A stretch of DNA of 64,000 nt from Protoeuglena noctilucae (GCA_958009085.1 OY253670.1:434001-498000), one strand, 5' to 3'; shown: positions 12,731-56,026, counted from the stretch's first letter. Notes: a model not told the origin generated them from the letters alone. Made by a program: numbers and translations.

Positions 12731-15700
12731 TCCTCACCACCACCGTCACCCTCACCCTCGCCACCCACCACCCGCAGGCATCGAGAAGCACGCGACCATC
12801 GCGCTGATCGTGGACCACCAGGGACAAGTCCAGGACGTGCGCCAGCACTGTGCCTGTGCTGCACCGGGGTTCAGCTTCACGCGCGAGGGCCTGCAGGGAG
12901 TGCCAGTAAACAAGGTCATCGGCATCAAGGGACCGCTCGAGGCGTTCATGACTGCGTGGGCCGAGGCCACGGCGGACCCTCCCTTTGAGTCGACACCGCA
13001 GCTGGTCACCGTCCGCACGCCCGACGGCACCGCCCGCCTCGCCAACGCTGTTTTCGGCGCCCGCCGCGACAGCCTGGGTAACGACGGCGATCGCGTGCTG
13101 TGCCTGACACTCTCCCGCCTGGACCTGCTCAACGTGGTGCTGGAGATGGCAGACGATGGTACCCTGCGCGCCATCCACGGCCCCGTGCACAAGCATGTCG
13201 GCCGACGCGCCGAGGTGCTGCTCTGCCAGCCCCTCTCGGCCATCGTCCCCGGATTGGGGGGCCGCATCCACCTTGCAGACGACCTCTTGGTTCCCCCCGG
13301 CCACCGCCGCGCGCCCAGCAACAAGCGCAAGTCGGTGGTGGGACCCGAACACTTCCAAGAGCAGTATGCGGGTTCACTGGGCGTGCGCCTCACTTTCCAA
13401 GCCGCGCGGATGCAGGGGACCAAGGACGAAGTGCTCGCGCTGCTGGAGGCCACGGGACCCCACCCCGGCCCCGCCAGGCCCCCGGAAGCGAGGGCGTTCG
13501 TCGCTGGGGAGGACCCTACCGAGATCGACGACGCGCTGCCTGGGGCACAACGGGCCGGGGAAGGGCTGGTGATTGATGCGGGGGCGGGTGAGGGTGCGCG
13601 TGTGGCGGAGGGGGCGGCAGGCGCGGTGACGGGGGGGATGGGAGGGGTGGCGAAGGGTGCGGAGAGCGAGGGAGAGACGGGGGCAGGTGCGGGAGAGGTA
13701 GAGGAGGGCAAGGTGGATGGGATGTCGAAGGCTGCAGAGGGTGCTGTGGATGGCGGGTCTCCTGATGATGGTGCGAAGGGCAATGTTGTGGGCGGCAAGC
13801 ACGGTGATGGGGACGGGAACGGGGATGACGAGTCGGACAGCGACGACGAGGGCAGGGTGCCTCCTCGCGGGTCTGCGTACGAGCGCGTGCGCGAGTGGGT
13901 GGAGGCGGGGGGCTCGCTGGACCGTGGGAGCGTGGCCATGTCGGTGGGGCTCAGCGCGACCGCGTCCCTGACCCGCCCCGGGCTGCTGCAGCAGCTCTCC
14001 GGCGCGGCGAACGGCGACGCAGGCGTCGAGCCGCTGACCGTCGACGCCATCGCTCGGCTCCAGGACTCGCTGCACCTCATGAAAGCCAAGCCCTCGGTGT
14101 CGGGCGACATCAGCCGTGAGTCGGCCCGCGCGCTCACCGCTGCAGCGTGGTCGTGGCTCCGCATACACGTGAATATGATATAAATTAGGTTTAACGTGCT
14201 ATCGGCTTCGATTCATGCGCGTACGCCTCGCTTCGTGCGTATCTAGATGACACGTGCCCCTCGATCCCCCTGCTTTACCGCGACAATGGAGCACTGCATC
14301 CCCTTCGCCGTCTTTTCAGGTTCCACGGCCCCCGCGGAGCCGAGCCCGACCAAGCCGGGGCCCGAGGCGGTCGCCGCAGCATCGCCCAAAGCACGCGGGC
14401 CCCTGGCGGACATCAAACGCGAGGCTGCCAAGCAACAGAGGAACTCCTCGACGTCCTCGCGGCTGGGCAGCATGTTCGTCGAGGAGTCGCGCGCGCCCGC
14501 GGGCACGAATGGCGGGGACAGCGGCGACGATGGCGACGGTGCCGATGATGACGGCGACGGCGGTGATAATGAGGATGGCAACGACATGGATGGCGAGATT
14601 GGTGGCGAGCAGCGCCGCGTGAGCATCGACAGCGGCGCGGGGAAGGCGAAAGGGCCGATGAGCCCCCGTGCGCGGCCGGGGCAGGTGGGGGAGGGGCGCG
14701 GCGGTGGCGGTGGTGCTGGCAAAGGCGATGACGATGAGGTGGATGAGGAGAGGGAGGGCAGCGTGGCGGGCAGCGCCGTGAGCGACTCTGTGGTCTCTGA
14801 GACGGGCGGCCGTGGGGGCGGGGCGGCGATGGTGGCCGAGGACGACGTGCCGGGGCTGGACCTCCTGGAGCACGAAACGGCGCAGGTGAGGGAACGTGAT
14901 GTGATGAGTCACCATTGCTCAGAGGTGGTCTGTGCACTTGCAGCGCAAGCCAAGGCTAGACACAGAGAGGTCCACTGTTTGCTTTCATTTACAACTCGCA
15001 TCCTCGCAACCTTCCGCAGGTGCGCTCCCGCAAGTTCAAGCGCATCGAGGCGCTTCTCACGTCGCGCACCGTGATGCGCCCCGTCCACGCCACGCGATAC
15101 GTGACGATGGCCGTGTGCCTAGTCATCTTCGCGGTGCAGTGCATTGCGTTCGGACTCACCCTCTCCTACGTCCGCAAACACACCCAGCTCAGCAACTACG
15201 TCTCGCTCGCTGCGACTGGGATGAAGGCGAGACGAGAGGGCGTTTGGGGGATGTCAACGCGACTGCCAATTTGCTAGCATCTCGCTTCTCATCCCACGAT
15301 CACCTCGCTCACCTCTATCTCACCGTCCCCACCTCTTGCACAGCTCATCGACACTCCTTACCTCGTCTTACCATGTCGCTCTTCGTGACTCGTTACCCAC
15401 TCACACTCTTGCACCCATTATTGCAGGGCATTATCGACATCAAACGGCCGCTTCTTACCTCGTCTATCTTCAACACTCCCCTCCCACGCACACTCTTGCA
15501 CTCCCTCTGCAGGACATCATTGACACCAAACAGTTGCGTCATAGCTACCTCGTCTCTCTTCAAGACTCCGTTCCCACTCACACCCTTGCACCCATGTTCG
15601 CAGGGCATCATCGACATCAAGCGCTACGCCCGTCTCCTCCAGGGCCTGTCCGTGGGCACGCCCATCCCAGGGGGTTCGCTTGAAACCAATCAGGCCAAGA

Positions 15701-18700
15701 TGTCCGCATTGACGGCGTCCTTCTTAGATGCGCACAACCAGCTCTACCACACGGCCACGTTCTTCACCCACGCACCGTGGAAGAGCACGTTCCGGGTGAG
15801 CAGGTTCGCGCGGCGACAGCACGATCTGCGGTGCCGGTGCTGTTGTGGCCGCACCCTCGCAGCTCGGCCGCCGATTGGCAGTGGGCTTCGGAGAGCAATT
15901 GTATTGCCACAGTTGGATCGCTTGGTTGGGGCTGGAGCACCGATAACGTGCTGCGATGCGTCGGTCGCAAGCCATCACGCCTAGTTGCTACCGCTCATTG
16001 CTCGCAGGACCTGTGGCTGGCGAACGACATGCAAGTGACCACCATGACGGCCAGCAGCCTGGCGACAGGGGCGCAGCTGCAGACGACGAACACCAATCTG
16101 TGGGAGTGCGGCAACACGTACGCGTCGAACGGACTCACCCTGGCCAAGATGACCGAAGCAGACATCAGCCAGGGGGACATCGCGCCCCTTGCCAGCTTCC
16201 AGTACGTCAAAGATAACGGGCTGGTTATCCTGGCGGGCAGGCAAGGGGGCTCTCAGTGACAGCACAGCGACACGAGCGCCGCTGCCCTATTGCCCCGCCG
16301 CCTAGCTGCCCTCTCGCCCTTCCCACACACCGCCCTCCCCTTGCTCTGCCCACGCAAACCTTCAACCCTCAACCACCCCCGCACCAACTCCCACAGCGCC
16401 CACACACCCCAACCGTGCCCCTCCCTCCCTACCCCTTTCTCTCAGATACGAGACCCTACTCAGTGCCCTAGTCAACGCGACGCGCGACAACCTGCACACT
16501 CTTGGAGTCGTCGCTCTCGTGTTTTTGGCCGTCAATCTCGGCGTCGTGGTGCCTGCTGCGATCCTGGCCATTCACGGGGGAATGGCAGCGGCCCTGCGCG
16601 TGCGTGCGGGGATGATGGCAGTGCTTCTGGCGGTGCCTCGGGCGTTGGTGCACGAAATGGCGCGGCGGCCCGTGAATTTGCAAGGGTTGGAGGAATTAGC
16701 GGAGGATGGCGACGAGGAGGACGCGGCTGAGGCGAACAAGGCTGCCGTGGCGGGTGCTGCTGGGGTGTCAGTGAAAACACTGCGGCTCCTTCTGTCGCAA
16801 AAGGTCGACTTTGAGAGGGTCAAGGGTGAGTGGGGGTTTGTTACGAGTAGTACTAGTTATGTACTATTGTTTTATACTATATAACAGTATAACAGTACAA
16901 CAGTATCTTGTATACTAGTGAAGGGTAGAGCGGCAGCAACGTCCCTACTCATTCACCTCAGCACAAAGCATCGCTCTTCTCAGCGCAAAGCACGTTTGCG
17001 CACTGCCACCCGCACCCTCTTCTGCCGCCCACTGGCTGCCCCCTTTTTCCCACCCGCAGTGGCCCGCGATTTGGTGCTTTCCCGCCGCGACAAGCAGCGT
17101 TCGCAGCGGGTGGTGGAGGCGCAGGTGGTGGGTCCGTTCGTGGCGTGGGGTGCGGTGGCGGGCGTTATATACGGTGTCACCTGGGCTTTGCAGTCCAGCA
17201 CCGCTGCGGTGTTCGAGCCATCCCGTGCGGGGTACTTCATGATGACTTATACTGCCAAGTGCCTGTGTAGTGCTACGGATTTGGTTGTTGACACCGTCAA
17301 TCGCCTGAATGGGTCGCCGTGGGCCACGGCCTCGGGGTCGGTCAAGTGAGGGGGTGATATGGTGATGTTGTGATATGGGCTGTGTGACTGTGGACGAGTG
17401 AGGGTATGATGATGTGATGTTGTGATATGGGCTGTGTGATTGTGGACGAGTGAGGTTGACACGGTGATGTGGGAGATGGCCTGTACGATGATACTACTCC
17501 TCAACTAGTCTGTTCACCTTAGAGCCAGATTGAGCCAAATCGAGAGATTCGAACTCTCGACCTCTGGCTCTTACCGCGTTCATTCGCAGGGACCGCCTCC
17601 GCGAGAACCAGCTGGTGGTGCAGAGTTCCGTGGATGCGCTCATCTGGGGCAACAGCACGTTCTTCAATGGGGTGATACCCGGGGGAACGGCGGTGTACGA
17701 CGCCCACGTGCGAGCTGTCTACTTCGACCACCAGTGCTTCAGCGTGAGTGGTTGGCTGGAGATGACCGTGGTGATTGATACTGCCATAATGGTGGCAATC
17801 AATGCGAGTGTAGCAGGGCATGTTGTACAACTATATCGTGATATCTGGGTTCTGGGAATTTACAAGCTCTCGCTGTGAATCCGCAGTTGGTGTCGTGCCC
17901 GCCCCCCACCGACCCCGACTGGCCGTCGACGGGGCGCGGGTATTACGCCCTGATGAGCCGGTTCAGCGATGAGGCCACGGCGCTGCCGGACGACAGAGAC
18001 GTCGACCTCACCGTCACCAACGCCAGGTAAGGGGTTGTGGTGGGTGTGACTGGGTGAATGAGTCAGTGTAACTGACGCAAGGTGCGGGGGTGGGTGTGAT
18101 TGGAACATTGGGGGTGTGGTGGGTGTGGCTAAGATGTGGACCTCACCGTCACCAATGCCAGGTGAGGGGTGGGGTGGGTGATTGTGGTCAGTGTAACTGA
18201 TGCCAGGTGAGGGGGTGGGGGATGGGATTGGTATGCGTGGGGTGCATGGCAGGGGTCACAGGTAGGTCGCACCTTGACTGGTGCCATGCATTGCAATCGT
18301 ACGAGGGTGCCATAGATCACGTCTTGCTTGCGATGCCTCTCAAGCAAGACGCCTCTCCACCGATGCCCGTCCCTCTCCCTCCCCTGCGTTCGCAGGTACA
18401 CCTTCCTGCAGACCCAGGGCGACGATTCGATTCTCCAGGCGCAGCTGAGGATCAAGGTGGCCATCGAATCGCACAACAACCTTGCCGTCACCCTCGTCGC
18501 CATGCACGCCGCGCTGCTCGCCGCCACCGCCGTCGCCGGTGTATGGTGAGCGCACCGGCAATGCGTGGAACGATTTGTAAACGATATCTAATAGAATAAG
18601 ATTGGCTGCGTGTCTTTGTGGGGTGTTCTCACCTGATGCTAGCGCCCCACAAGTGGCTGCCGATGTATCACCTCACACTCCATATCGCTCGCAGTCACAC

Positions 18701-19859: not shown

Positions 19860-22800
19860 CATCGGGAAAACCCGGCGATTTGACGTCACTCGGATCAGAA
19901 GGATCGCGGGAATCACTGGATTCATCCCAGTGATCCCCGGGAATCGCCGGGATCATCCCCGTGATCCCGGCGATCCCCGCCACTGCCGCAGTGATCCCAG
20001 CGATCCCGGGCCGCGGCCCTGACGCGCGTGCGCGCCCCCGCGTTTGCTCAGGGGGCTCGAGAGGAGGCGGAGAGACCGCACATTTGCTAGTTGGTGCTAA
20101 TGACTGCCTCGGAGGCCCCTCTCGCGTCCTAAAGCTTGCTCCAGCATGCAGACGGGGGCCGTCGACGCATCCGGGGTCCGCTTCCCCTGCGCCGCCGCTG
20201 TTCAACGTGAGATGTCCATATCTATGCGATGAGCGGGAGCTCGCGGGCTCGCCGGGCCCCCGGGGGCGCCGGGGAGGTCCCCGTGCTCGACCAGGCCTAC
20301 CGCCGCCGCGGCCGCGATCGGGCACGCAGCGCTTGGCCTATGGATTGAGGTGACCTAAATCTCGCTAGCTGCGGCGCCTTTGCCGGCTACGCCGCACGGA
20401 GGTGGCTGCTGCATGGGAGGTGAGCCGTCCCCGCCGTCATGGCGCTGCGGATGGGGGCGCGGGGCTGGCTTCGGAGAATTATCTCGATACAGATGACATC
20501 GCCGGCGTCGGGGACCTGGCACCGCGAGCATCGGGGAGCTCCTGGGGTCACCTACTCCTCGCCGCCGCTGGCGTGGTGCTCCCAGACCTGCTGCACGTGG
20601 CCGCAGTGAAGAAGCTTCCCAGCAACTTTCACGGCGTGAAGCTGCCGCCGAAGGTTGCGGAGGGGCACGCACTTCAGAGCCTCGCCCTCCGCAGGCTCCA
20701 GGAGCGACAGCTGGGGAGGCTGCAGCGCTCCCAGGTTGGTGTAGAACGACAAGCACTGGTTGGACAGGTACCTCAGGTCGCATGGGGCCGTGTGCACCGG
20801 GGCCACCAGGGCGCAGAGGAAGGTCCCGGCACCGGAGCTGGTCTTCGCCTCAACCCCGCACACGACCCTGCCCGTCTGCAGCGTGCCCCTGTCCGGGAGG
20901 TACTCGACGAAGGACAGGGTCTCGTCGGTGGCGACGATCCTGGCCCGGTCCCCGCTGGCCGTCCCGATCTCGACCGTGGAGGTCAGCGCGACCTCGCCCA
21001 AGACGTGGCAGGGAAGCCCCGCGCCCTTGAGGGCGTTCAGGAGGTCCGCCTTAGAAACGAAGTCTTCCGCGCGTCCCTCGCTGCACAGGTCGTTCTTCTT
21101 CAGGACGGTCTTCACGCCCTTCACTTGGTCCTCGGGCTGGGACGGGACCGGCTGCTCCGCCCTCGCCCGGCTCTTGATGACGGAGGCCGCCCTCTGAGAG
21201 ATGACGCTGGTGCTCGCCTGCGACAGGGCTCGGGGGTCAGTCCAGCGCGGCTCAGCATGGCACGCGGGTCGAGCGCCGTGCGACCGCATCGAGACGTGTG
21301 AGTCGCAAGAAACGCGTCCTGCGTGGGCTTCCCCGCGTCGCCTGCGCTGGGCGGCGCTTCTTGCCTGTACCTGCACGTCGCCCTTGCCGTTCGTGCGCGC
21401 GTTGGCAATGGGCTTGTGCATGCGCTCGGCGTCGTTCATGCTGCCCAACATGATGGAGCCGTTCCTCGCCACCACTGCAGGGAAATGCGAAAGCGCGTGG
21501 CACTTCTGGCTGTTCTCGATCTTGCTGAAGAGGGGCTTCTCCGTGCGGACGATTTCGTGGCCACGCAGCAGCGTCTTGAGCACGACCTGCGGCGACACGG
21601 CAGCGACAAGGCTTCCAGAGTGAGTAAGGGGCAGCGAACGATGGGGCTGGTGTTGGAGAAGGCCTCACGTGGAGGACCTTATTCAGCTGCGCGTCCGCCG
21701 CCTGCGCCCCTGCGATGGTGGCGCTCTCCAGGGACCATTCGGCAGAGAGCTGAAGGCATGCCAGGGCTACGGCCACGAGCCCAACCCTCTCGTCGTGCAC
21801 GTCTTTGCTGCCCGAAAGCTCTGCAAGGGATGTGGTGGTGGGGAAACACTCCCGGGGTTCCCCGGCCCGCATCGCGATACCCGCAGCTCCTCCCGATGCC
21901 CTCGCAGCGCTGACTGTCGGCCTCGCCTCGAGAGAAGAGCTCGATGAGGGCGAAAGGCAGAGCTTGGATCAAGAACCTCGCCTCGTACGCCTTTATCTTC
22001 CCAAACGGGTCCACGAGGCTCAGCACGATCTGGAAGGTCTCGCCCCACGGACGGGCGTGGATCCATGCCGGGGCCTGCGCTCCACCCACACGACGATGGA
22101 CATGCCAGGTGAATACCGAGCAGCTGCGGCGCCACTGCAGGCAACGCACGCCATTGCCTGACCTGCAGCTCACCTTGGCATCCGCAATGATCGATGCGAA
22201 CGCAGCCAAGAGGGCGTTTGCCTTTGTCGCAGACTCTCCCGCTGCCGCGTTGTTGTAGAGGACGGTCAGTATGCAGAAGGGAACAGTCTTGCCCAACATT
22301 CCCAGTTCCACGGTGTGCATGGGGTCAGGTGCTTGGCCCTGATACAAGTCTGACCCGAACTCGTCCCAGTACGACAGGGCAGGAACCACAGGATGAATTT
22401 TGCTCTCCCTGGCTTGTTCGTTGGCCCTGGCCGTCCCCACGTCCCTCCTCAAGCGCAGGATGTGCTGCACCTGGAGGCGATGCAGCGCGACGGTGCGAGG
22501 CGTGCGGCAGTCATCCTGGAGGCACAGCGGGCACGACCTGACGGCCAGCGTGGACGAGTTGGCCATCATGTCGTTCAGCTGCGCCGCCAAGACGGGAAAG
22601 ACGATGACTCTCCCGACGTCGGGGAGGGTCATCCACACCCCACCGGACCTCGCCACGCCAATCAGCTGCCGGTCCACGGCAGCCAGCCGCCGCTGGATGG
22701 CCTCTCTGTTGTTCAGGTCTGCCTGTGACCCCGGAGTGATCCCGGACACCTGCGGGGGCCTCGAGCGACAACTCATACACGCGGCGTGGTGGTGGACGTG

Positions 22801-25432
22801 TGGGCTGCAACGCCGGCAATCCTCCTCTCGCCTTCATGGACTCGACGGTGGCCACGGTTCGCGGCGTCCCTGTCCTCACGGCCTTGCAAGGCGACAGGAG
22901 GTGCATGTGGATGGGCGTCGTCGATGCGCCCTTGGTCATCTCCACCCCGTCGATGCTGTACGCGACGGGCACGAGGAGCAGCCGGGCGTGCAGCTCGGGG
23001 CGGACTTTGCCAGCGACAGCCTCGGCTATGTCGCTATACCCCTTCGCCCGGGAGAAGGTGAGCTTCTCGTGGATGCTGGGATGCGTCTCATGTGGTCTCG
23101 CCCGCGCCTGGCGTGACCGTTCCCGTGCCTCGCTGAAGTCTCGCATCAACTTAACGAGCGTCTTGGGCTTGATCTGCTCCGCGTGCACCAGCATGTCCCT
23201 CAGCACCGTTATCGTTTGGTAGATGATGGTTGTGCTGCCCTCCTCTTGCAAAACCTGCAGGCCGTGCGTGCACTGGTTGGCGTCAGCCCCCTCGGCCGCG
23301 TCCGAGGCCCTCGACACAAGCGGCACCGCGGCGTGACGCACCTCGTACTGGCCATGGATGCTGTTGAGTGAGGTGTGGAACGTGCGGTGGGAGCGCCCGA
23401 GGTCGAGAAGGTCGTCGCGGATGTCGGGGCGCAGCTTCACGAAGCAATCGAAATGCGCTGCCGTCAGCGATGCCATGAACTGCGCCCCTGCTTCAAGTTG
23501 GCTCAGGTACTCATCGTCACTGTCCCTGCTCCTGGCCCGCCATGCCTCCAGGTCCTCCGGCAGCTTCAGCGGTTCGTACTCCCCGGGCGCAGGAAGGTAG
23601 GAGACTCCAGGAGCGTCCTCTTGGGGCGCATCATGCGCTCCGGCGCTCTCGGGCGGTTCACCCCTCTCCGAGTCAATGTCCACGTCCATGTCCACGTCCG
23701 TGTCGGCGTAGTGGAGCCACGCGAGTCCTACATCTTCGCTCTCGCCATCACTGCCCGCAGCAACGTCCGCCGTCCCGTCTTCCTCCCGCAGTTCTTGGTC
23801 TGGTCCCGCGCTGGCGCTGTCGCGTGCCAGCCCGTCCGAGCCTCGCAGAGACGGAGAGACATAGTGTTCGTGTGGGGCGGCGGGGCGGGGTGCTTCCTGG
23901 CGGCTCTCCTCGCCATATCTCCAGCCCCACAGCGCAGGGCATCTTTGCTGATGCCGGGCGAGCTTGGCCGGGGTATCGAATTGCGTTCCACACGCGTCGC
24001 ATTCGAGCATGGTGAGCTGCAGCGCAGGTTGCGATGCAGGGTTCAAGGCGGGCATGGTGAGGGCGTGGAAGCGGAGGTGAGGAAAGTCCAGCGCGCGCTC
24101 TGTGGGTCAGGCAGGCTCAGGGGTCGTCAGTCCTCCAGGCAAGCGGGGGTGGATTGCAGGGCTGCAGCGACAGCACCGCGCACAGGCGAGGCTCGGCGCT
24201 GCTGGTGCGAACAGCGCTGGATCATCGTCCCTCTCTAGGGTGAGAGTGCAGCCTGCTGCTGAGCCATCTGCGAGGTGTGCTGACGTGGCTGGGGAGGGGA
24301 GGGGCCAGCTCCCGTGAGGTGAGATGCAGCATACGCATGACTAGATCAGGTCGGACATTGTCGCTGTCCCCGAGGTGCGCGGTTGGTCTGCTGCGCTACC
24401 GGTGGGGTCTGCGACACGGTCAGGTGTGCAAGGGGGGGTTGGTTGGCTGGGAGGGACGAAGGGCTGGTCCGCCAGCGTGGTATCTCTGTACTTGCTTACT
24501 GTACCTGGCACCGTGCCTGCACTCTCTCACCCCGAGACTGACTCTAACTTCGCCTAACAAGCACGCAGGCGCACGTGCCACCTCGTCCCAAGTTCCGGCG
24601 CTGGTCGGGTGCTGGCCGGGCCCGCCATGGCTCGTCCGCCGACCCATGCCCCTTGTCTGTCGTCTGGCGTCCGCGGCGCCCCGCAGCGGTGGTCATCGAC
24701 TCCTGGGGCGGCCGTCGGCACGGCGGAGTCGCGCACGCCACCATCTCCCGAGTGCCTGGCCCGAGTGCCGGAGCGCCGCTCCCCGATGGAGCGGCAGCGT
24801 CCGGAACAAGCGGTCGGTGCCTCTGGCGGTGGTCGCTGCGCGCTCCCGTCGCGCCTGCGGCCGCCCGAGTCCGGCTGCATGTGCGTGCATGAGTGCGTTG
24901 CCTAGAGCGTCACGGATGGTCATGTAACCTCGGCGTAGGGATTGAAATACCAATAGCTACGCTAGGGAGCGATTACGGGCCGAACGGAGCCCCCCGGGCC
25001 GCGCGGGCCCCGGAGCGCGCGTGCCCGAAAGATGCGTCCGATCGCGATCAAGATAGGTCTGATCGCGGCCGAGAAGGAAGATAGGCGGCGGGATAGCCTC
25101 GGCTAACGCTTCCGGCGCCGCTGCGCTCCCGAGTGGGCCCCGCTCCCCGCGATCCCCGACCACGACGAAATGCCGCGAAACTGCTCCCAGCGGCCTCTCG
25201 CATCCCGGGTGCGCCGTGGCCGTAACCGCGCCGCGAAAAACGGCCTCCCCAGGGAGATCGGGCGCGCGGCTGGAATCACTGGGCTCAATGAGGGTTTACA
25301 TTACAGTCTGTGTCGTCAGTGGGATCACTGGGGTGATCCCTCTGATACCCCGGGATCAGCGGGATGATCCCCACGATTCCTGGGTATCACGGGGATGATC
25401 CTACTGACGCCAGACTCGCGGTTTTCCCGATG
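19860..25432 (-). mobile_element. Plavaka-type (CMC-related) cut-and-paste DNA transposon, apparently full length (5573 bp)
   Basis: Left end CATCGGGAAAACC (19860) and right end GGTTTTCCCGATG (25432) form a perfect 13-bp inverted repeat that extends imperfectly to ~38 bp. It is flanked by AA at 19858-59 and 25433-34. Both ends carry subterminal GATC-core repeats, and the element encodes a transposase. Confidence 0.9.
20552..24010 (-). CDS. Plavaka-family DDE transposase with N-terminal C2H2-like zinc finger, 7 exons
   Basis: Motifs in order: CDACGTQFDTPAKLARHQQRC (Zn finger); VAYSIDG (D1); VFPVLAAQLNDMM...CPLC (D2 plus CxxC); APDPMHTVELG (DxxH); KCHALSHF...NGS...AERMH...RTN (catalytic E). 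Six introns can be placed that keep a single open frame to TAG at 20552. Confidence 0.85.
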
Positions 25433-28752: not shown

Positions 28753-28846
28753 GTGAGACTGGCTGTCATTATTACTATATGCATGATCGTATCATTGCAT
28801 GATATATGTATGACTGATCCGTGATCTCGACAACCCCTCCCCTCTT

Positions 28847-33023: not shown

Positions 33024-33074
<51 letters not shown>

Positions 33075-43394: not shown

Positions 43395-43503
43395 CTGGAG
43401 CTGTTCTTCAAAGTCGGGATTACGAACGGCGAGCAGGGCTCCTCCCAGTCTGGGATGAGTCCTGCTTCCCGTTCGTTATGCCGAATTTGAAGAACACTTC
43501 CGG
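43395..43503 (+). other. Long imperfect inverted repeat / fold-back hairpin (54-bp arms, 1-nt spacer); candidate small-RNA precursor
   Basis: 43395-43448 pairs with 43450-43503: 44 of 54 positions Watson-Crick, plus 4 G-U pairs on the + strand (hand count). Confidence 0.85.
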
Positions 43504-44422
43504 CGCGATGCAGCTGAGCTGGAGGTGCAATTTTCGAGCGGCGCGGGCCGTGGGCTGCGGCGCCGAGAGAGTGGCGGCTGCAATATCGTCCTTCACCTCC
43601 TCATCGATGCGGGAGCGCCCATGCGAGCGCACGCGCGCCTTGCGGACCGTCACCAGGTCCAACCAGTTGCTCCCGTTGCGCTCGCACGCAGGGCGCCGCG
43701 GAGCGCCGTGATCGCCCTCGAGAAGGCGCTGGACGCGGTGCTGTGCGCTCCGGAGCTCCGGATCTTTGACGCGGGCCCTTCGGCGGGTGTACGGAGCTGC
43801 GCAAGCGGACGGAGCCTGCGTGAGAGCGGGAACGCGATTCGCGCGGCTGCTGCTGTCCACCGCGCCCACGCCCACGCGATATGCAGAGAGAACTCGTGGA
43901 AAAGGTGGCCGGGGCTTGGCGGAGTTTACCCGCGGACGCTCGCCGCGAGCAACGGGTCGCTGGCGAGCGTGCTGCGCGCAAAGTCCGCCAAGGCGCAGGC
44001 CACCTTGATGACGAGTTCCCTTTGCGGTGGCGTTCGGTTTGGTGGGATGTCGCGTGTGTTGTCGCCGGCGAGCATGTCGTAGACTGCGGACAGTGAGAGA
44101 GGGGGGTTGAATTCGACGATCTCCGCAAGGCCACTGCACAGCACGTTACATCCCCTGCGCTGCCCACGTGCGTGCCCTGCTCCTGCTCATAGCACGGCAC
44201 GGGGGTAGCGATGCTAGCCATGGGCGCCTGGCAAGCCCACTGCAGCGCGTTGAAAGCCAGCCTGCCAGACATCCATGTTCACATCCAGATATCCGTGTTC
44301 ACGCGCGCCGTTCAATCGTCACCAGCCCCGGCCAACCCACCCTAGCGCGGCTACGCGATGGCTGCCCGATCACGCCGCAGCTACACTTCGCAAGTTGCCA
44401 CATGACAGAAAGAGCTTTCTCT

Positions 44423-47400
44423 TTACATGTACTGCTTGAGCCACGCAGCGACGTTGATGTACGATTCGAACTCGGTCTGGGGGATGGCCAGGTCGTGCTT
44501 GTCCTCAAACAGCAACACGCGCACCTGCGTGGATGTACACAGCAAAGGCGAATAACATACCAAGGGAAAGCATCTCGCAAGATTACATAGCAAAAGGCAA
44601 CTGAGATGCGCACGGTGCTGCAGCGACGGACTGCGGCGGCAACATCTGTGTGTTCGTTCTCTCTGATAGTGTTCCCCTACACCACCTGCCACCACATCCC
44701 CATCCCCTATCCCACCCTCTCTCATCTACTCACCCCAACTCCGCTCCCCTGCACCACATCCCATCCCATCCCATCCCCCACCCCACCCTATTCTCACTTT
44801 GACTGAGTCACCGAGTCACCCCCTCCCTCACCTCCACCGGGTCCTCCCTGTCCCTCAGCGCCGTCACGTACTGCATGGCGTCCTTGCAAGGCACCCGCAT
44901 GTCCTGGCTGCCCAGCAGCATCAGCACGGGGGCACGCACGTCGGCCACGTGGGCGATGGGGGACGCGGCATGCATGCGCTCCAAGTCAGACACTGCGGGG
45001 GGTGGGGATGTTGTTGCATCAGCAGCGTCAAATGCACTGCACCATATACAAAGTGATACAAAAAGTATCGTTGCATAGGCAGCGTCAGGTGCACTGTACC
45101 AGATACACAGTGATACATTACACCTTTATCAAGCACGCCATCGTCACATCCCCACGCACCCCCCCTCTCCCTCCCCTCACCGGTCGGGTCGACGCGGAAC
45201 CTCCTCCGCCCCTCCTCGGTGCCAAACACCTCCACGAAGCACCAATCGGGGATGTCCGATATCCCGCTCATCAGCGCCACGTTGCAGACCGGGTTGCGCA
45301 TGACGCCGCATTTGAACCGGTTGCCGTGGCGGCCCAGCAGGTGGCCGGCTAAGAAGCCCCCGTGGGAGCCGCCGCTGACGGCCACGCGGGAGAGGTCGAC
45401 TGAGAGGGGGGGGGGGTTGGTTGGTGTGTGGGGTTTGGGGGTGGGGGGGGGGGGGGGGGGGGGGGGAGTTGCGAGTGAGGGGCAGGTGGGGAAGGTGAGC
45501 TTGCCAGAGAGCGGCCAGGGATGGTAGGAGCAGCAAAGCAGAATGGATGCATTGAAACAGAACGTGCTATCAATCATCTGCCTCACCGATGCCCATGCTT
45601 GCCGCCAGGTCGAGGGCGCTTAAGCAGACGCGCACATCCATCTCCCCGATGTGGCCTGCGAGGAAACAGGAAGAGGGGATAGGATAGCACAGCTGCTTGC
45701 GATCTCTTAGTTCGTTGCTCATTAAACATCACCCGGCAGCGCCTGCACCACCACCACCCCCACCCCCTCTCCCTAACCACCACCCACCCTATCACCCCAC
45801 CCCCACCCCTCCCCACTCACCCGGCAGCGCCTGCACGACCGCCTCCCCGAACCCCGTGCTCCCCCGGAAGTTCACCAAAACCACCGCGTACCCCGCAGCG
45901 GCCAGGAAGGCATAATAGGTGACGAACGACGTCACAAAGGCCGCGTGGGGCCCGCCGTGGGGCACGAGCACCGTTGGGGCGGGGCCGTGGATGGAGCGAC
46001 GGCGGATGATGATGGCTTCGATGGCAGATGGGGAGGGAGATGAGGGGTCGTCGGATGGGAGGGCTGGGGTGCTGAGGAGGACTCCGCCAGATGCATCGGC
46101 GTCGGCGACGGTGGCGTCTTCAAAGGGCACTTGGATGACTGGGGGGGGTGGGGAGAAGGGGGTGGGAGTGGTGGGGGATTGGTGATAATCAAAGCCACTT
46201 GGATCCACTTGGATGACTGGAGGAAGAGGGGGTGTGGTGTGTGCGGGAAGAGGAGTGGGTGTGGGTGACATGCGATGGGTGGTGGGTGGGGAGGGAAGGG
46301 GGTAGGATGAGACGCGATGAAGTGAGCCCACCCACACCCACCTGCACCCACCTCGACCACCCAAACTCAATCACACCCACCCCCACTACCCACTCACCCT
46401 GATACTCCATGCCGGCCAATGCGCTCTCCACTTAACACCACCCCAGTCACTCAGTCACTCACCCCGATACTCCATGTCGGCCAGCGCGCCCTCGACCGCC
46501 GGATGGAAGGGCTCCGGCATGGCCACCTGGATGCCCTCCCAGATCCACGTCCCATTGCACTGCCGGGCGACCATCAGCTTCTCCGGTGTTGCAGGGGTGC
46601 TCACCGCAGCCACCAACACATCGTGCCGCACATCCAGCAATCGCCACGACCCGCAGTTGGGGGGCGGGGGCGTGATGCGAGTGATGGTGCCGGTCATGGT
46701 GTCGACGGTCACGATGGCCTGGTCGGAGCGCCATTGGGAGTGCAGCACGATGGTGTGGCCGTCCGCGAGGAAGGGGGCCGCGGGCTGCAAAGGGGGGGAT
46801 GAGGGGGAAGGGGCTGGGTGTGGTGTTGGTGGGGTGTCGGTCTGCAAATGCATAGAGCGTATAAATGCTACTTTCAGATCCACACCACTGTCACTCATTA
46901 GCGTGGTCACCCATCCACCCCATCACCGCTACTCAGATCCACATCTACCACGTTTTACCGATCCATATCTACCGCTATTTACCACGATCGCTTATCTCGT
47001 CAACACACCCACTCACCAGCGTGGTCGTGTACAGCCCCGGGAAGTCCTCCCCCGTGTTTGGTTTGTCCACCACCCCAATCATGGTTCGAATCTCAGTGGG
47101 GACGGCAGGGCCCACGCGGGGGTCGGTGGGGTCGCTCCAGGAAATCCGACGCAGGGCGGCTGGGGGGGAGAGAGGGGTGGTGGTGGGGGTGGGTGAAGGT
47201 GGTGGTGGGGGTGGCAATGGGGGTGGCAGTGGGGGTGGCAGTGAGGGTGGCAGTGAGGGTGGCAGTGAGGGTGGCAGTGGGGGTGGCAGTGAGGGATAGG
47301 GTGGGTGAAGGTGATAGTAAGGTGGCTGAGCGTTGAGCCTGTTGAGGGACGGGACTGTATAAGACCATGCGTCTCGTTGCGTATGCCCATCTGCCCCCTC

Positions 47401-50076
47401 ACCACCCCCACCACCAGCACTCCCTCTCACCTGTCCCGTTGTGCGTCCCCGTCTGCCCTATCACCCCACCCCCACATCTCACCTGCCCCACCCTATCCAT
47501 GCCAAATCTGACCCATACTACCCCAGCCGCCACTCCCTCACCCGTCCCGTCGTGCGTCCCCGTCTGCGCCGCCGCCTCATGGGACAGGAAGATCACCACC
47601 GCCCCGTCGGGCGTGAAGCGCGGGGAGTGGGCGCTGAGCAGCCCCTGAGTCAGGCACACACACGCAGGGGGCTCCGTAGTAACTGCATTGGCAGTAGTAG
47701 CACCAGCACCACCAGTACCACCAGAACCACCAGAACCACTAGTACCACCAGTAGCATTAGAAGTGTTAGTGGTGGTAGTGTTTGTAGGTGCACCAGCTCC
47801 CGTCTTGGCAACCTCGGTTTCGGTTTTACCACCCCCCCGCGTGTTTGCATGGGGGTGCTTGGAGGGCATCGCGAGGGCGTAGAGGCGCGAGGGGCGGTTC
47901 ATGCAGTAAATAATGCCCAGCTGCTTGACCGTGAAGTAGTTGAGGGGCTTGCCCGGCCAGCCCACGAACTGCGGGGGGGTGGGGGGGTGAGTGGGGTGGC
48001 GGGTGTTGTGAGGGAGTGGGAGGGTGGCAGGGGTGAGGGGGAGTGGGATACAGCGGCGACTAAAGCAGGATGGGATTGCAGCCCTAATAACTAATGGGAT
48101 CAACATGACGGTCACCCACTCACCACGATGGACTCCCCGTCCGGGCTCCATAACGGCTGCCCGCACGACAGGTCAGGGTCGATGCCTGGGGGGGGAGAGA
48201 GAGTTGCTTGTCACCACAACATCGCCCCATCCTATCACAACATCAATACCACATCACCCTTCGATGCCATCGCAACTCACCCCCACCATGCGTTCCCCAT
48301 TCATCTTCCATTCTTCTATCACTCACCCGGCACCGCCTCCACTTCCCACGAAGCCAGGTCCATCACGAACAGACAGAGAGACAGAAAGACAGAAAGAGAG
48401 AGAGAGACACAGTGAATAGCCACTCACCCGGTACCGCCTCCACCTCCCACGATGCCAAATCCATCACGAACAGTCGGGGGATGCCGCGCCGGTGGTATGC
48501 CTCTCCCCAGTCTTGGTCCCACTTCCCCTTCCCGCGCCACGTCTTGGGCTGAAAGGGAGGTAAGCGAGCGACGGTGGTATTGGTAACACCATGCTCGTCA
48601 ACCAATCTCATCTCCCCACCCGTGTTGTAACCCAACTCTGCCACCGTCATCCCAGCCACGCTCGCAAACACCCCCTGTCACACCCATGCCACTCAAACAC
48701 CCCTGTCACCCACTCCCCACCAACCACCAACCCCTCACCTTGGCCCTTCCCTTGTCACCCAAGTCACGCTTGCAAACACCCAACCCACCCAGTCACATAA
48801 ATCACTTGCAAACACCCCCCGTCACACCCACGTCACTAATACGCACTACACACCCACCCCTGTCACCCACCATTCACCCCATCAACCACCCCATCAACCC
48901 CTCACCTTGGCCCTTCCCTTAGCCTCCCCCCCCACGCTCCTCGACCCGGCCGTGAACGCTCCCCACTCGGGCGTCTTCTCGGCAGCAGGCGCCTCAGCCA
49001 CGTAACAAACGCGGGACTCATCGGGGGACCAAGCGGCTCCATCGGCAAACCACCCGTCGTTGAACACACCCCGGTGCACCGACCTCGGTACCTCCACTTC
49101 CTTCAACAGCCGCCCGCCGCCCCAGATCTCCAAAATCGTCGGCTCCTTGTCCTTTCCCGGCCCGTCCGACTGCCTCACGACCAGCATGCGGCAGCCGGAG
49201 GGGCTGGGGGAGACCAACACCACGTCGGGACGCAGCTGCCATGGAAGGGAGGGGATCATCGTGGGCGCGGCGCCGACGATCACCGATACCGGGATGTGAA
49301 CCGTGGATACGAACCGGCGCATGGCGTTGTTCGCCAGGTCGCGCTGGTTGAAGAGGACCTGGGGGCCAAGGGGGCACGCGGAGATGAGAGAGGTGGGGGC
49401 ACGCGGGTGTGTTGGCGGGCGTGGGAGTCGTGTAGCCAAGCGAGCGCGTCATATGCATGGATGGTGACCAAGCATGACGTAGAAAAATAGGAACAGGTTT
49501 TAATAATGGGTTTCGCAGTGAGATAGGAGCCCGCGGGGTGCTCCCTCGCCTGGATGTCGCATCCGCCGATGGAAGACGGCATGCACCAGGCCTTGGAGAT
49601 GGTGGGGATCTCGCAGAAGCCCTCGAGCATGACGGTCTCGGCCTCGACGCCGCTCGGCTCCTCTCGGGCGCCGTTCCCTGCGCGCGGGGCGGCGCAGGCG
49701 CGGGTTGGTTCGCGGCGCGCTTGCTCGCGACAGGTGCCCGCGATGCGGGCCCGGGAGGCCCCGGCGCGGCCTCCCACGATCGGCATGGCGTCATAGAGCG
49801 ACCCTGTCGCGGCATCGCAGACATCCGCGGTCGCAGGGGCCGCGGCGGGGGCGCAAGAAGGCTCGCACCGTTCGCGGGACGCTCGGTCGACGCCGCGTTC
49901 ATCGTAACTCCCAATGGCGTGGCGGATGCAGCGATCTTGGCCGTTTGAGGGACGCCGCGGGCGCGAGGAGCGGCTGGGACGGCTCCCGGGGCCCTGCAGA
50001 GCGCGGCGATGTGCGCGGCTCGGCGGAGCGCGCAGGGTCCAAGCAAGCGGGGACTGAGGCCCACGCAGCGAATCAT
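44423..50076 (-). CDS. APEH: Acylamino-acid-releasing enzyme (acylpeptide hydrolase, family S9C)
   Basis: PHGGPH, VNFRGSTGFGE, nucleophile GGSHGG (~45360), LGSQDMRVP (Asp) and FEDKHDL (His). N-terminal propeller motifs HRGVFNDGWFADGAAWS and GIIYCMNRPSRLY. Confidence 0.93.
47210..47294. repeat. (GGTGGCAGTGRG)n 12-mer minisatellite in an APEH intron
   Basis: About 7 tandem copies. A shorter related array occurs at ~31985-32025. Confidence 0.9.
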
Positions 50077-50589: not shown

Positions 50590-53500
50590 CTACGTCCTCT
50601 GGTGCTGCTGGAGCGTGATCTTGTCGCCGAGGGCGAGGGCGATGCCCTGCGTCTTGGACCGGATGCGGATGTGGCCCTCGAGCGTCCCCGCCCCCGTCTT
50701 CTCCACGCTCATGTTGACCAGCGCGTCCTCGCCGAAGACGCTCCGCGCGTAGAGGTTGGCGGCGAGGAAGCGGGACTCGCCGTCGAGCGCGTTAGGCGGC
50801 GTCAGGCACCGCATATTGGTGGCCCGGCAGATGTGCTCCAGGAAGTCCCTCGGCTCCGTGATGCGCGTGTTGACCGATACCTTGTTCTCCCACTCGAATT
50901 CGGCCCACATGGACCGGAACTGCGCGTCCGGCACGGTCGCCGGGTGGATGTAGTCCATGATGTCGACGTGCACGTCGTTCATCACCACCACGCTCCGCTC
51001 CCCGTAGCCCTTCCCCTCGTATACCACGTTCCCGAACACCACGCCCGTCTCGGTGGACGAAACCTTGATGTTGGCGCGCACCGTGCGGGCCTCCCCGGGG
51101 CTGTGGGGGATGGGCACGGACGGGGGACGAAGGTGAGCCTCAGTCACTACGCTGTTGTTCTTGAGTGGCTAGCTCTACGCCATCTCAGCCAGGTCACTGC
51201 TGTGCAACATCTCAACCATATCACTGCGCCATCCCAGCCACGTCACAACGCCACCTCAACTACCCTGACATGCCACTCCAGCCACATGACTGCGTTGTGC
51301 CATGCGCACATCCCATCCACCCCGGGTCTCGCCTGAGCGTGAGGGGCGCGGGCCTCTCCACGACCTTCAGGTCCCCCATGGTCGCCAGCTCCAGCACCAG
51401 GTTGCGCATGTGCTCCTGCGAGGGAGATGATAGGAAAGCGTGAGAAGAAGTAAGCAGTGCTCTCTGTGTCAAAGTCTTGATCGTGTCGTCAACACCATTA
51501 CGCGACCGAGCCGTCTGAAGCGAGCATGCAACCGTAGCCTTCTCGGGCACCCTCACATTGACAGGTATCTCTCCCACCCTGCAATGCACCCCCCGGGCCC
51601 CTCATCGCAATCGCCCCCCCCTTATTCACACGAACCCCCCCTCGCCCCTCGCCTGTGTGCGGTTGATGAGCGTGACGTCCATGACGATGTCGTACTGGTG
51701 GACAGTCACGAGTGCCTCGGCATACACCGGGTCGCTCAGCCCCGTCAGCTGCAGGGTGCGCTGGCGAGACGAGGCGTCGCGGTCTTCCTGGGGGGGGAAG
51801 GGAGAGGGTGGAGATGAGGTTTGGGGAGCAGGGACACAAGGTTGGGTGCATGAGCAAGGAAGAGTGGTACTGGGGGAGTTGCAATGGTTGACAGAGTGCG
51901 CCCACAATACACGCGCCTCCCCTGTACCCCACAACGCATGTTCTGTAACCCATCCACACAACTCGCCTGCGTGAACCCCGTGGCCTTCACCAGGTCGTCG
52001 TCGTCTGCCGCCCCCTGTGCCGCCGACTGGGAACGCAGCTGGGGGATGTCCACGGGGGCGTCCGGCTGCACCTGCGAGCGACATGTGGCGATGCGGCGGG
52101 TGAGGAGCAAGACGAGACCACTAAGTCGTTGCTGTACTTGTGACCCAGTCGCAGTGCTGTGCTGGCACAGCCACAGTAGCGCTTCTGCCACAGCACATTG
52201 ACCCCTGTAACCTCCCCCGCCCATACCAGCCCCGCCCATGCGCTCATCGCAGGCAACCCCGCCCCCTCTGCTCGCCTGGGCCACTGCCTCCCCCCTGTAA
52301 CCTCCCCCCATGTTATCCCATGCCATCCCACATCATCGCCCATGCGCCCATCGCACCCTCCTCCCCCACCACTCGCCTGGGCCACTGCCTCCCCCCCCTC
52401 AGCTGCTGCTGCTGCGTTGCGTTCGGCTATCATCCGTTCGAATGCGCGCCGGGACTCGTCCAGGAACAGCTGCTGAAGCACCGCGTCCTTGCTCGTCTGC
52501 AACGATGTCAAACGAGAAGATGCGATGGGATCGATGCGATCGTATTATGCATGGCCAGCATAATACGATGATAGCTGTCACTGTGACTGTCATGCATACC
52601 ACCACTCACCAGTGCCTGCATGGCCAGCATGATGCGGTCATAGCTGTCCGTGTCCACCGGTGCCGTGCCTGGCGCCTCCCCCAGCCGCAGCACCGCCGTG
52701 AAGAACAGCATGTACTGCGTGCAGCAAATCACGGAATAATTATTTCTAATGCCTTGCAGTTTCGCTCTCAAGTTTCGCGAACCCACCACCGTGCAAGCAT
52801 GTGTGCCATGCAGCCGCATGCTTACACCTCCCCCCCACTTACCTGCGCGGCCGCCAGGTTAAACGCCTCCGGTGCGATGGCCCCCATAGACCGAAGCTTG
52901 AACAGCAGCTTGGCCACAGTAGTAGCGGCAACCGCTGCCAGGAAGTAGTCGCCCCCCAGCACGAGCGCCCGCACGTTGGGAGCCTGCGGGCCCACCCCGG
53001 CTGTCTTGGCGGCCATCGCTTGCTCGGTCACCGCTGTCTGTGTGGCGTAGCTCCCGTCTGGCAGCACCACGGTGCGGGTGCTGCCGCGGGGGGCGTCGGC
53101 GGCCGGGGCGGCGGGGTCGGAGGGGCGGTCGGCGTCGGGGGAGATCTGTGGGGTGGGGTGGGGGGCGGGGGTGGTGGAAGTGAGGGTGGGGTGAGCATCA
53201 ACATCTCATGTATAAAGTCATTCCCACCCAGACAATTCCCTAGTACCGTTCGAACGATCACACTACCCGCGTCTGTCGCCATGTCCGATTGCGTACCGCC
53301 CTAACCCCCCATACCCTACCGCCCTCCACCCCACCCCCTCACCAGGGGCAGGTCCCCCAGGGACGTCCTCAGCGTCTCGAGCGCCCCCCGGACCTCCGCG
53401 GGCGTCGCGGCGTACTCAGACATGACCCAGAGACTGGAGGCGCACACCCGGCCGGACCGGGTCTGCCGGAAGGTATCCACCAGCCGAGACATGACGGTCG

Positions 53501-56026
53501 CACGGAGGTCGGGGGACGCCTCTGCGATCTCCCGGACGAAGTGGACGACTTCCAGAGCGCTGGCGGCGCTGGAATCGCCCAGGAAGTCCATGAGGAGGTG
53601 GACGACGGACGGGGCGACGGACGGGAAGCGGACCGCGCATCGGTGGACGCCCGCGATGAGGAGCTGGCGGTACTGGGGGCCGCCCTCCACGTCCTTGGAC
53701 TGCGGGGGGTGGGGGGGGGGGGGGGGGGGGGGGAATGGGAGATGTTATGGAATCTGAGATGAACTCTAGGGTTTGGACAGGCAGGGTGGTGAGGCGGTGC
53801 TCGCGATGCAAAAGGAGGGGCGTGGGCATGGGCATGTCTTTGAACTGGCACCTCACGATCTCCTTCTTCAGCACCTGCACCCCTCTTGTTGACAATCACT
53901 CACCTGTGACCTCACGATCTCCTTCTTGAGCACTTGCACGACCTCGTCGATGGTCCCCTTGGACACCAGGCCCAGCGCCAGGTCCAACACCTTTTTGCGC
54001 ACCTCCATGGACTGCGGGGAGGGGGCAGAGGGACAGGGGGTGTTTGTGAGAGAGACAGGCGTTTGTCGCAATCAGCAGTGTGGCCAGCGAGGCGGTGGTG
54101 GGACAATACGCACATGCGAGGTTGCCGACACAATCAAACCCCGTCATCGACTCTTCCCCCCCCACCAGCCCGTGTGTCTCGCCTGGGTGTTGAGTGCCCT
54201 GAGCAGGTCCATCAAAAAGTCCTTGACGGTGGCCTGGTGCTTGTCGCGGAGGCTGGCGATGCGGTCCAGCACGATGAGCTTCACGTTGTTGTCGGACTGG
54301 GACACCTGGGGGAGGGGAGAGTGAAGCGGGAGGTGAAACGGAGGTAAACAAAGGCTAGAAGTAGTGTTGTCGGACTTGGACGGGGGACTTGGACCGGGGG
54401 GGGGTGGGGTGGGGGAGAGGGAGATGGAGAGGGAGGTGAACGGTGGTGAGCGAAGGCAAGCGAACGTGAGCGGAGGTGAATCAGGGTTTAGCAGAGGTGA
54501 TCAGAGGCAGAGGATAGCAGAGACCAACAGAGAGTGTACAGGGTGCGCATGCGCCGGCCGAAGCTGTCCGTCTCGCCGCATGTCTTCATCAGCATGCACG
54601 TACAGGTCGCAACCAAACGTGTAACAGTGACTCACCAGCAGCTGGACGTAGCAGTTGGCGACGGCGCGGATGGCGGTGGGCGCCTGGGAGAGCTGCGTCA
54701 GGACGTACGCCGCCTCAAAGACCACCGAGGGAGACGACGACTGGACGAACGCAAGCACGATCTGCGGGCCATGAAAGTACAGGTGATGCAGCGGTGACGA
54801 GTAAGGAAATGAGTAGAAGTAGCAGGTGGCAGTCAGGTCGCGGTGAGAGCGAGGGGGAGGAAGCTTAGACCCGAACCCAGGCGAATGCACCGCCCACCCG
54901 CCCCGCCGCTCGCCTGCACGAACGTCCCCCTCTGGGCCGGCTGAGTGCGGCAGGCCTTGCGGACCAGCTGCAGCCCCGCCATCTGCATCGTGTCCTGCCA
55001 CTCCACGAGCCGGGCCTTGTTCTCCACCAAAAACTGCAGGGCGCGCGTCTCAGCGTGATTGATTAGGAAGTGGAACGCGTTGCGGCGGGCGCTGGGGTCC
55101 TCCTCCTGCCGCAGAAACTTGTCGATGACCTCGGCCGCGTCCGGAATCAGCACGTCGCCCTTCGGGAGCTTCGCGACGGAGTCGACGGCGAGCACTGCGT
55201 TGCGCCGGACGTACGCCTTGCGATGGTCCAAGCACGCGAGGATCGAGGGCACCAGGGGCTCCAGGATGTCCTCCTCGTGGATGCGGCAGAGGAAGCGGAG
55301 CGTCACGCCGCGCAGGAACTCGTTCGGGTGCTGCAGGTTGTTGCGCAGGTTTTGGCAAATGAGGATCATCTCGGGGAGCAGCTTGCCCGACGCGTCCGTC
55401 TTCTTGATCGTCTCCTGCGCGAAGCGGGGGGCACGAGGCGGAGCGAGATGAGCGACTTCGACGGGGCAGCGAGGCGGACGGTCGCTGCGGGCCGGCGCGG
55501 GCGGAAACGGCGCGTCGCACAGCGCGTCATGCAGTGCGGGCCCCGCGGCGTCCCCCGTCCCAGATCCTCCCCCTCCGCGCACGCAGCGAGCACAACAAAG
55601 TCGTACCTGTTCGCGTCTGCGTCTAGGGGACAGGCTAGCGGCGTTCTGCGCCCGGCGCGGCCAGCCAAAGGGTCAAGGCCGGCAGGGTCGTCCGCGTGGC
55701 GCGCCGAGGCGGGTCCGGGGTCGAGAGCCCGATGCGATGGAAAGAACGCATGAAAATCAATCGCGAACGCCCAGGGGCCTCACCAAGTAGAGCAGCAGCA
55801 GCTTTTGGACGAGGTGGTTGTCGGTGGGGAGGACGTAGCGCACGATGGTGAAGAAGAGCTGGTCGAGCTGCTCTCCGTTGAGTATCAGCGCGATGACCTG
55901 CTTCATCGCCTCCGCCTTCTCGCCCGGATCGGCCGACTCGAGCATCTTCTTCAGGTCCACCTGGTTGGGGTTCCGATCGGAGTGCACCAGCATGGTGCAG
56001 GTCTGCTCCGTGAGGCTGCTCGTCAT
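50590..56026 (-). CDS. COPB1: Coatomer subunit beta (beta-COP)
   Basis: CTMLVH...[124 protein letters not shown]. Confidence 0.98.

Follow-up and report, generated by a model that had tools for sequence, protein, structure and literature searches.

Introns in a 64,000-nucleotide (nt) stretch of the Protoeuglena noctilucae genome (GCA_958009085.1 OY253670.1:434001-498000, called the window below) carry copies of the edge of the neighbouring exon together with its splice site. We use the term echo for such a direct copy of an exon edge and splice site within the adjoining intron. Alignment against control introns confirmed that the echoes are real and not chance matches, and the differences between exon and echo are biased towards silent changes. 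The echoes are probably leftovers of small local direct duplications, which would be common in the introns of this organism and would decay once formed.

Exon-edge echoes in the window

The window has a G+C content of about 64% and a single gap of 200 Ns (28847-29046), and its gene content is eukaryotic, with short exons and many introns. Exon-intron models came from a custom three-periodic Markov/Viterbi gene finder and not from curated annotation. A first pass over-called tiny exons, and the final models use harsher splice penalties; they contain 120 exons and 110 introns (median intron length about 200 nt) in 10 gene regions. RNA contigs provided a check of the models for one gene, and Pfam matches did so for several more. 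The exons of the RNA contigs agree with the models at 45820-46138, 46463-46784, 47542-47968 and 48906-49357, and gaps of 183 and 143 nt in the RNA contigs equal predicted exon lengths (121 + 62, and 143). In the predicted frames, Pfam matched Peptidase_M16, APEH_N with Peptidase_S9, Adaptin_N with coatomer beta, Peptidase_A22B, UTP15/WD40, DEAD and PAS. Of the gene names given in the original prediction, which was made from the sequence alone, these matches back the M16 peptidase (nardilysin-like), APEH, coatomer beta and signal peptide peptidase, whereas 'TmcB-like' and 'CFAP92' had no Pfam match on the exons tested. The M16 exon matched at only 48-56% identity in a protein search, with no annotated P. 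noctilucae protein among the matches, and the APEH exon matched 25 metagenome loci at 33-63% identity, which are relatives among the S9 peptidases and none of them close kin.

For each junction, up to 60 nt of exon end plus 12 nt of intron were aligned locally to the junction's own intron, and junction queries aligned to other introns served as controls (n = 1320). A score of at least 14 was reached by 24 of 220 junction queries and 3 of the controls, and a score of at least 16 by 20 junction queries and no control. At the 24 junctions, of which 19 are donors and 5 acceptors, the scan returned 28 echo copies, distributed over 22 of the 110 predicted introns and 6 of the 10 gene regions. One extra junction beside the N-run (29195-29359), aligned by hand with a score of 37, brought the total to 29 echoes. 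Self-BLAST gave direct repeat pairs 45-240 nt apart at the sites first reported, and a three-frame reading revealed exon end plus donor, or acceptor plus exon start, copied into the adjoining intron. Echoes had originally been proposed at 22 sites, in about 20 introns across six genes, and all 22 sites were recovered, 21 by the systematic scan and that at 29195-29359 by hand; four of them are weak, with scores of 14-15.5 (30996-31121, 38149-38264, 46128-46223 and 54287-54381). Three further junctions were added by the scan (10250-10433, 31508-31645 and 45729-45855). The junctions and their echoes are listed here by window coordinate.

10250-10433, plus strand: donor junction, exon end 10283; echoes 10318-10359 and 10414-10433; older echo with an in-frame stop
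15415-15623, plus strand: acceptor junction, exon start 15604; upstream echo 15415-15446
Containing echo 15415-15446, plus strand: three-copy tandem array with a unit of about 88 nt that includes a polypyrimidine tract and AG
17997-18170, plus strand: donor junction, exon end 18026; echo 18132-18170; 3 synonymous and 0 non-synonymous differences
17997-18170, plus strand: 135-nt duplicated unit, itself containing an older diverged copy (18062, 18187)
27564-27741, plus strand: donor junction of the M16 peptidase gene, exon end 27592; echoes 27663-27697 and 27713-27741
27996-28105, plus strand: donor junction, exon end 28019; echo 28077-28105
28347-28471, plus strand: donor junction, exon end 28377 with GC donor GCGAGT; echo 28435-28471 with GTGAGT
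29195-29359, minus strand: donor junction, exon end 29320; echo 29246-29195; 4 synonymous (including CGG/AGG) and 0 non-synonymous differences; intron cut by the N-run, aligned by hand
30996-31121, minus strand: weak echo, score 14.5; exon 31121-31105 copied at 31012-30996, donor part gone
31508-31645, minus strand: donor junction, exon end 31621; echo 31540-31508
32646-32806, minus strand: donor junction, exon end 32768; echo 32696-32646, score 38.5
32946-33127, minus strand: acceptor junction, exon start 32972; upstream echo 33127-33091 with its own CAG; (GATT)n between
34381-34555, minus strand: donor junction, exon end 34511, heading a four-copy array with a period of about 62 nt; echoes 34458-34437 and 34433-34381
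35046-35215, minus strand: donor junction, exon end 35199; echo 35069-35046, 24/24 identical, flanks 39/44
38149-38264, plus strand: donor junction of the signal peptide peptidase gene, exon end 38159; short echoes 38206-38222 and 38251-38264; 53-nt tandem array
38339-38435, plus strand: acceptor junction, exon start 38416; echo 38339-38363, 25/25 identical; CT-rich 47-nt spacer, no upstream repeat
45729-45855, minus strand: donor junction, exon end 45821 (RNA-supported); echo 45767-45729; 1 synonymous and 4 non-synonymous differences
46128-46223, minus strand: acceptor junction, exon start 46138 (RNA-supported); weak echo 46223-46206
46391-46496, minus strand: donor junction, exon end 46463 (RNA-supported); echo 46431-46391
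47426-47567, minus strand: donor junction, exon end 47542 (RNA-supported); echo 47456-47426
48320-48473, minus strand: donor junction of the APEH_N exon, exon end 48428; echo 48372-48320; 5 synonymous and 0 non-synonymous differences; CT-rich spacer unrepeated past the echo
48728-48920, minus strand: donor junction, exon end 48906 (RNA-supported); echo 48753-48728, 26/26 identical, flanks 51/66
52271-52396, minus strand: donor junction of the coatomer beta gene, exon end 52377 with GC donor; echo 52295-52271, 25/25 identical
52548-52648, minus strand: echo; exon 52648-52617 copied at 52579-52548, final 7 exon nt and donor diverged
53850-53939, minus strand: echo; exon 53939-53909 copied at 53880-53850, donor lost (TTCAAA)
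54287-54381, minus strand: acceptor junction, exon start 54305; weak echo 54381-54365

The offset from exon edge to echo ranges from 53 to 177 nt (median 101), and the exon part of an echo is 7-46 nt long. All echoes are direct repeats, with inverted copies in 0 of 220 junction queries, and exon interior lying 61-120 nt from the junction was copied in 0 of 175 cases. Direct copies confined to the exon edge are the geometry expected of duplications that span the junction. Clear tandem units with similar spacers account for 9 of the 29 echoes, some in 3-4 copies (arrays at 15.4, 18.0 and 34.4 kb), and junction-spanning head-to-tail arrays lie at 10.3, 15.4, 18.0, 34.4 and 38.15 kb. Among donor echoes, GT or GC was kept in 20 of 24 and the consensus G[TC][AG]AG in 16 of 24, compared with about 15 of 24 by a hand estimate of consensus retention at about 9% divergence. 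The pseudo-sites thus decay about as fast as the remainder of the echo; the donor is lost or diverged in several (53850, 52548, 30996 and 27713). AG was kept in 4 of the 5 acceptor echoes.

Duplication was not restricted to junctions. When we took wholly intronic 72-nt segments, 11 of 65 had a direct copy further downstream within their own intron, compared with 0 of 390 controls, although some of the 11 may be microsatellites or echo-echo pairs. Intronic segments are therefore duplicated as often as junctions, which points to a general intronic process. Once low-complexity pairs are set aside, 39 local repeat pairs are left: 24 involve an exon edge, 14 pair intron with intron and 1 pairs exon with exon. 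Since duplications inside exons would break the reading frame, the survivors would be those that span junctions and those within introns. Introns with echoes are also longer, with a median of 310 nt compared with 190 nt in introns without them (p = 3.5e-6), which supports the proposed link to intron growth. A perfect 39-nt tandem duplication (59368-59445), with adjacent copies that are 100% identical, was noticed a short way upstream of the exon at 59463 that encodes the DEAD-box helicase; it appears to be a very recent duplication of this type.

We then compared positions 30001-50000 with DNA and RNA contigs, bearing in mind that contigs hide rare variants and minor isoforms. Contigs of an environmental marine metagenome (X5) matched 34384-37421, 37480-45397, 45821-47238, 47266-48363 and 48417-50000 with 0 differences. 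A contig from a culture run (X1) covers 33279-45397, with pieces of up to 12 kb showing 0 differences; the assembly may itself have been built from the culture runs, and the metagenome is independent. At about 10 sites a single contig contains both the exon edge and its echo. At some echo pairs the short-read contigs end, as de Bruijn graphs do (48363/48417, for example). No insertion or deletion of an echo was reported among the contigs of one culture and one metagenome. The metagenome contigs are identical to the window over up to 7.9 kb, so a genotype nearly identical to the sequenced strain must be abundant in that sample.

Splice-site use and silent differences

RNA contigs of two metatranscriptomes (X9 and X10) join 46138 to 46463, and they bound exons at 47542, 48906 and 45820 and not at the echo sites. 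At the four echo-bearing junctions in these contigs, the exon-proximal sites were used (46138, 46463, 47542 and 48906), rare isoforms being invisible in contigs. An in-frame stop precedes the echo donor in 19 of 24 donor echoes, and one echo itself contains a stop codon. Offsets are spread over the three remainders modulo 3 as 10, 5 and 14 (for 0, 1 and 2). No acceptor was found upstream of the echoes that were read by eye. The suggestion that echoes are at times translated is not supported, given the in-frame stops, the offsets and the RNA junctions, which are all proximal among those listed, and we consider translation of the echoes unlikely. At 28377, the authentic donor is GCGAGT and the intronic echo has the stronger GTGAGT, yet according to the open reading frame the echo is not used.

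Exon and echo differ by 45 synonymous and 24 non-synonymous changes over 227 aligned codons, a synonymous share of 65% (bootstrap over echoes 0.53-0.79); counting one echo per junction, the numbers are 40 and 19. In the two wrong frames the synonymous share falls to 25% and 12%. The codon bias is real and frame-specific. A silent bias had been predicted and is confirmed, at an unbiased 65% in place of the predicted three quarters or so. The accompanying argument, that a neutrally decaying duplicate should show no codon awareness, is wrong, because the exon copy is under purifying selection. As the exon accepts only silent changes, a freely drifting echo still yields 39-54% synonymous differences at equal rates, depending on transition and GC-to-AT bias; change in the echo alone would give 24-37%. 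Purifying selection on the exon accounts for roughly half of the silent differences. A fit of six substitution classes to the non-synonymous differences, all of which have to fall on the echo lineage, predicts a total of about 25 silent-type changes (about 12.5 for each lineage), compared with the 45 seen.

In echoes with alignable spacers, a hand tally gives differences at 10 of 165 sites for codon positions 1 and 2 and at 16 of 83 for position 3, with spacers differing by about 15%. These values are close to the 0.5-fold and 1-fold levels expected of a neutral echo. The ratio of synonymous to non-synonymous differences is alike with and without alignable flanks (16:9 and 29:15, hand tally). 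Silent transitions are nearly symmetric, with 19 pairing G/C in the exon with A/T in the echo and 13 the reverse. Older echoes, including the one with a stop codon, decay plainly. Hypermutability of CpG as the cause of the silent excess was set aside by reasoning, CpG transitions falling about evenly on silent and replacement sites.

Origin of the echoes

Local duplication, the reading that we consider probable, would proceed as follows. A duplication would span an exon-intron junction, and the gene would survive because the spliceosome would keep to the exon-proximal site, that is, the most upstream donor or the most downstream acceptor. The intron would be left with a further copy of the exon edge and splice site and would grow by about 100 nt, and some units would be duplicated again, giving arrays of 3-4 copies. 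The intronic copy would then drift freely while the exon copy would change at silent positions only, so that differences between them would be mostly synonymous. At the molecular level the duplications may stem from break repair with fill-in, replication slippage or unequal exchange, and the echo itself would be neutral. The undescribed mechanism of intron growth that was first proposed is unneeded for the bulk of the data, as intronic segments are duplicated alike.

Several observations weigh against this reading. With offsets of up to 177 nt, random breakpoints should yield exon parts longer than the 46 nt that no echo exceeds, and the model therefore needs some added selection or mechanistic bias. 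The repeat is confined to the junction segment in 19 of 29 echoes, whose spacers do not resemble the sequence beyond the echo, and spacers are unrelated even where the junction copies are 90-100% identical (e.g. 38339/38411 and 48320/48421). Such junction-only repeats are not predicted by plain tandem duplication with uniform decay, and they need filler insertion at birth, fast intron turnover or later homogenization of the junction. A mobile-element or repeat-family origin of the spacers was rejected, with no family-like matches in the window. The preponderance of donor over acceptor junctions (19 versus 5) is unexplained. Silent differences exceed the model 2.1-fold (95% confidence interval 1.25-3.7, likelihood-ratio p = 0.0075, 69 differences); on a cruder ratio the excess is 2.9, and 0.02% of bootstrap replicates fall to 1 or less. 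Selection for GC-ending codons should, if anything, lower the silent rate of the exon and so widen the gap. Finally, all counts come from one 64-kb window and from our own gene models.

The silent excess leaves room for a diverged template or for indirect selection via gene conversion, and either might account for the junction-only copies with unrelated spacers as well. In the first case the echo would have been copied, in the course of break repair, from a diverged functional exon edge, for instance that of another allele, of a cryptic sister lineage or of a paralogue since lost. Such an echo would arrive with its silent differences, and the sequence beyond it would be the template's own intron. 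The roughly two-fold excess over the expectation for duplication in cis fits such an origin, as do echoes with silent differences only (5:0 at 48320-48473, 4:0 at 29195-29359 and 3:0 at 17997-18170), the near symmetry of silent transitions (19 versus 13) and, in 19 of 29 echoes, homology that ends just past the donor consensus with unalignable flanks. We nevertheless give it only a small chance. By our estimate, the required divergence is at least about 0.1 per silent site, a large value for alleles within a single species, and the silent share is the same whether flanks can be aligned (16:9) or not (29:15). Older echoes decay plainly, down to a stop codon, and the excess rests on 69 differences. 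A weaker argument is that the contigs reveal no diverged haplotype, with 0 differences over kilobases and no variant letters in exons.

In the second case, exon edge and echo would convert each other, and in a very large population echo variants that are harmful in the exon would be purged indirectly. The same silent excess applies here, and two junctions hint at homogenization, being 100% identical over 24-26 nt between flanks that are 77-89% identical (35046/35192 and 48728/48895). However, the ten events with alignable flanks have 26 junction differences against about 25 expected (hand tally). Frequent conversion should also erase silent differences, yet 16% remain at third positions, and conversion of the exon by the echo, once selection had acted on it, would reduce the silent share rather than raise it. 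Gene conversion is thus hinted at in two cases and unsupported overall in the hand tally, and we regard its chances as slim.

Both ideas had been put forward in the original prediction. The residual excess of about 2.1-fold could accommodate either of them. Taken as one, the proposal that echoes derive from a functional but diverged version of the gene, or that continuing exchange with the exon keeps them codon-aware in a population of very large size, is unlikely but has to be reckoned with. If it were true, introns would hold a reservoir of swappable alternative exon edges and splice sites, driving intron growth and splice-site turnover.

We also considered that echoes are kept as functional pseudo-splice sites, acting as decoys or helpers for U1 or exon-binding factors, with the differences being mostly silent changes of the exon. 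The frequent retention of GT or GC (20 of 24) and of the five-base consensus (16 of 24) is in line with this, a slowly changing echo would also give a silent excess, and GTGAG is enriched within introns (52 occurrences versus 33.1 +/- 5.8 after shuffling). But the donor motif is retained about as the estimated overall divergence of about 9% predicts, the site is lost at 53850, 52548, 30996 and 27713, and wholly intronic segments are duplicated at the same rate, making such a function improbable. Still less credible is the use of echoes as alternative exon ends translated in some transcripts: their sequence is exon-like and the donor often intact, but 19 of 24 have an in-frame stop, offsets are not enriched in multiples of three, no acceptor precedes the echoes read, and the RNA contigs contain proximal junctions only, among the joints listed. 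An assembly artefact from merged haplotypes or strains, which the 200-N gap and the contig breaks at some echo pairs (48363/48417) might suggest, we reject, because independent metagenome contigs as well as culture contigs carry exon edge and echo with 0 differences at about 10 sites.

If the ordinary reading of local duplication holds, the window offers a natural series of intron growth, from copies that are 100% identical to badly decayed ones, and short cross-junction duplications are tolerated since the exon-proximal site wins. One intron in five is a high rate, and suggests that much intron sequence descends from DNA close to splice sites. The echoes are also many natural tests of an authentic site against near-identical pseudo-sites. 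Should the two-fold silent excess hold genome-wide, templating by a diverged copy or indirect selection via gene conversion could follow.

Other features of the introns and comparison with known systems

The 110 predicted introns are strongly polar from 5' to 3', with G falling from 0.41 to 0.15 and C rising from 0.19 to 0.50. In the same introns CTCAC occurs 5.1 times per kb and GTGAG 2.2 times. The abundance of CTCAC and the polarity may reflect a branch-point-like motif or pairing of intron ends. GC donors were assigned to 30 of the 110 introns (GC-AG; examples at 28378 and 52376), a share possibly inflated by contamination of the gene finder's donor matrix. For Emiliania huxleyi, a share of about 60% GC donors is reported (PMC4028052), and a preprint on Pelagomonas gives 0.19 introns per gene (10.1101/2024.10.30.620910).

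Other repeats were recorded in the window. A (CACCCC)n microsatellite at 12661-12759 is read as a His-Pro repeat within a predicted exon. Two microsatellites are intronic, a (GTGA)n tract of about 170 nt at 29641-29807, which resembles a reiterated donor consensus, and a (GATT)n tract at about 33010-33075. Related arrays of a 31-nt tandem repeat lie 5.4 kb apart at 19904-19979 and 25319-25413 and flank minus-strand open reading frames (20552-23841), one of which has a weak match to Plavaka transposase (E = 0.007, below the cut-off); arrays and reading frames may together be a transposon with subterminal repeats. Within an APEH intron, 47174-47295 is a G-rich minisatellite with units of 9-12 nt. 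Its word depth is about 4986 versus 50-160 in the culture run and up to about 3700 versus 10-20 in the metagenome, and from here many contigs continue into dissimilar sequence. This minisatellite is apparently a high-copy repeat with a dispersed distribution.

In the open-access library that was searched, no genome-wide account of exon-edge copies within introns was found. Introners of marine algae such as Micromonas and Aureococcus, which are GC-rich picoeukaryotes, are multi-copy repeat families shared among many introns and have a bearing on how introns arise and lengthen. Echoes are unlike introners in that each copies its own neighbouring exon, and no introner-type family emerged when junction queries were aligned to other introns (the best score was 14.5, and 3 of 1320 alignments scored at least 14). 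Templated insertions can be inverted, in contrast to the echoes, with their 0 of 220 inverted copies.

Introns can be gained by tandem duplication of an exon segment that contains an AG|GT proto-splice site (PMC2891723; also PMC3265369 and PMC4974935). In that model the 5' end of the new intron copies the start of the downstream exon and its 3' end copies the end of the upstream exon (PMC2891723). Such duplications resemble the echoes in being tolerated near splice signals, as splicing removes the extra copy. Here, by contrast, existing introns were enlarged, and the signature of intron gain was found in 0 of 110 introns on either side at a score of at least 14. Small tandem duplications also arise from break repair, through fill-in by Pol alpha-primase/CST (PMC8355091) or through polymerase-theta end joining (PMC7368036). 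These are short, direct and local copies of tens to about 100 bases, as are the echoes, and would be a plausible source of the units, although many echoes, unlike them, are separated from their source by an unrepeated spacer.

The closest counterpart is the 37-bp minisatellite in IVS7 of human F7, whose first unit spans the boundary of exon 7; the upstream-most donor is used and the identical pseudo-donors are silent (PMC1557585). That case concerns one locus with identical head-to-tail units, whereas the echoes affect 22 of 110 predicted introns, include acceptors, are mostly diverged and, in 19 of 29 cases, repeat only the junction segment next to an unrelated spacer. In both, a direct repeat crosses the junction, pseudo-sites lie in the intron and the proximal site is the one used, for the echoes at the four junctions that RNA contigs reach.

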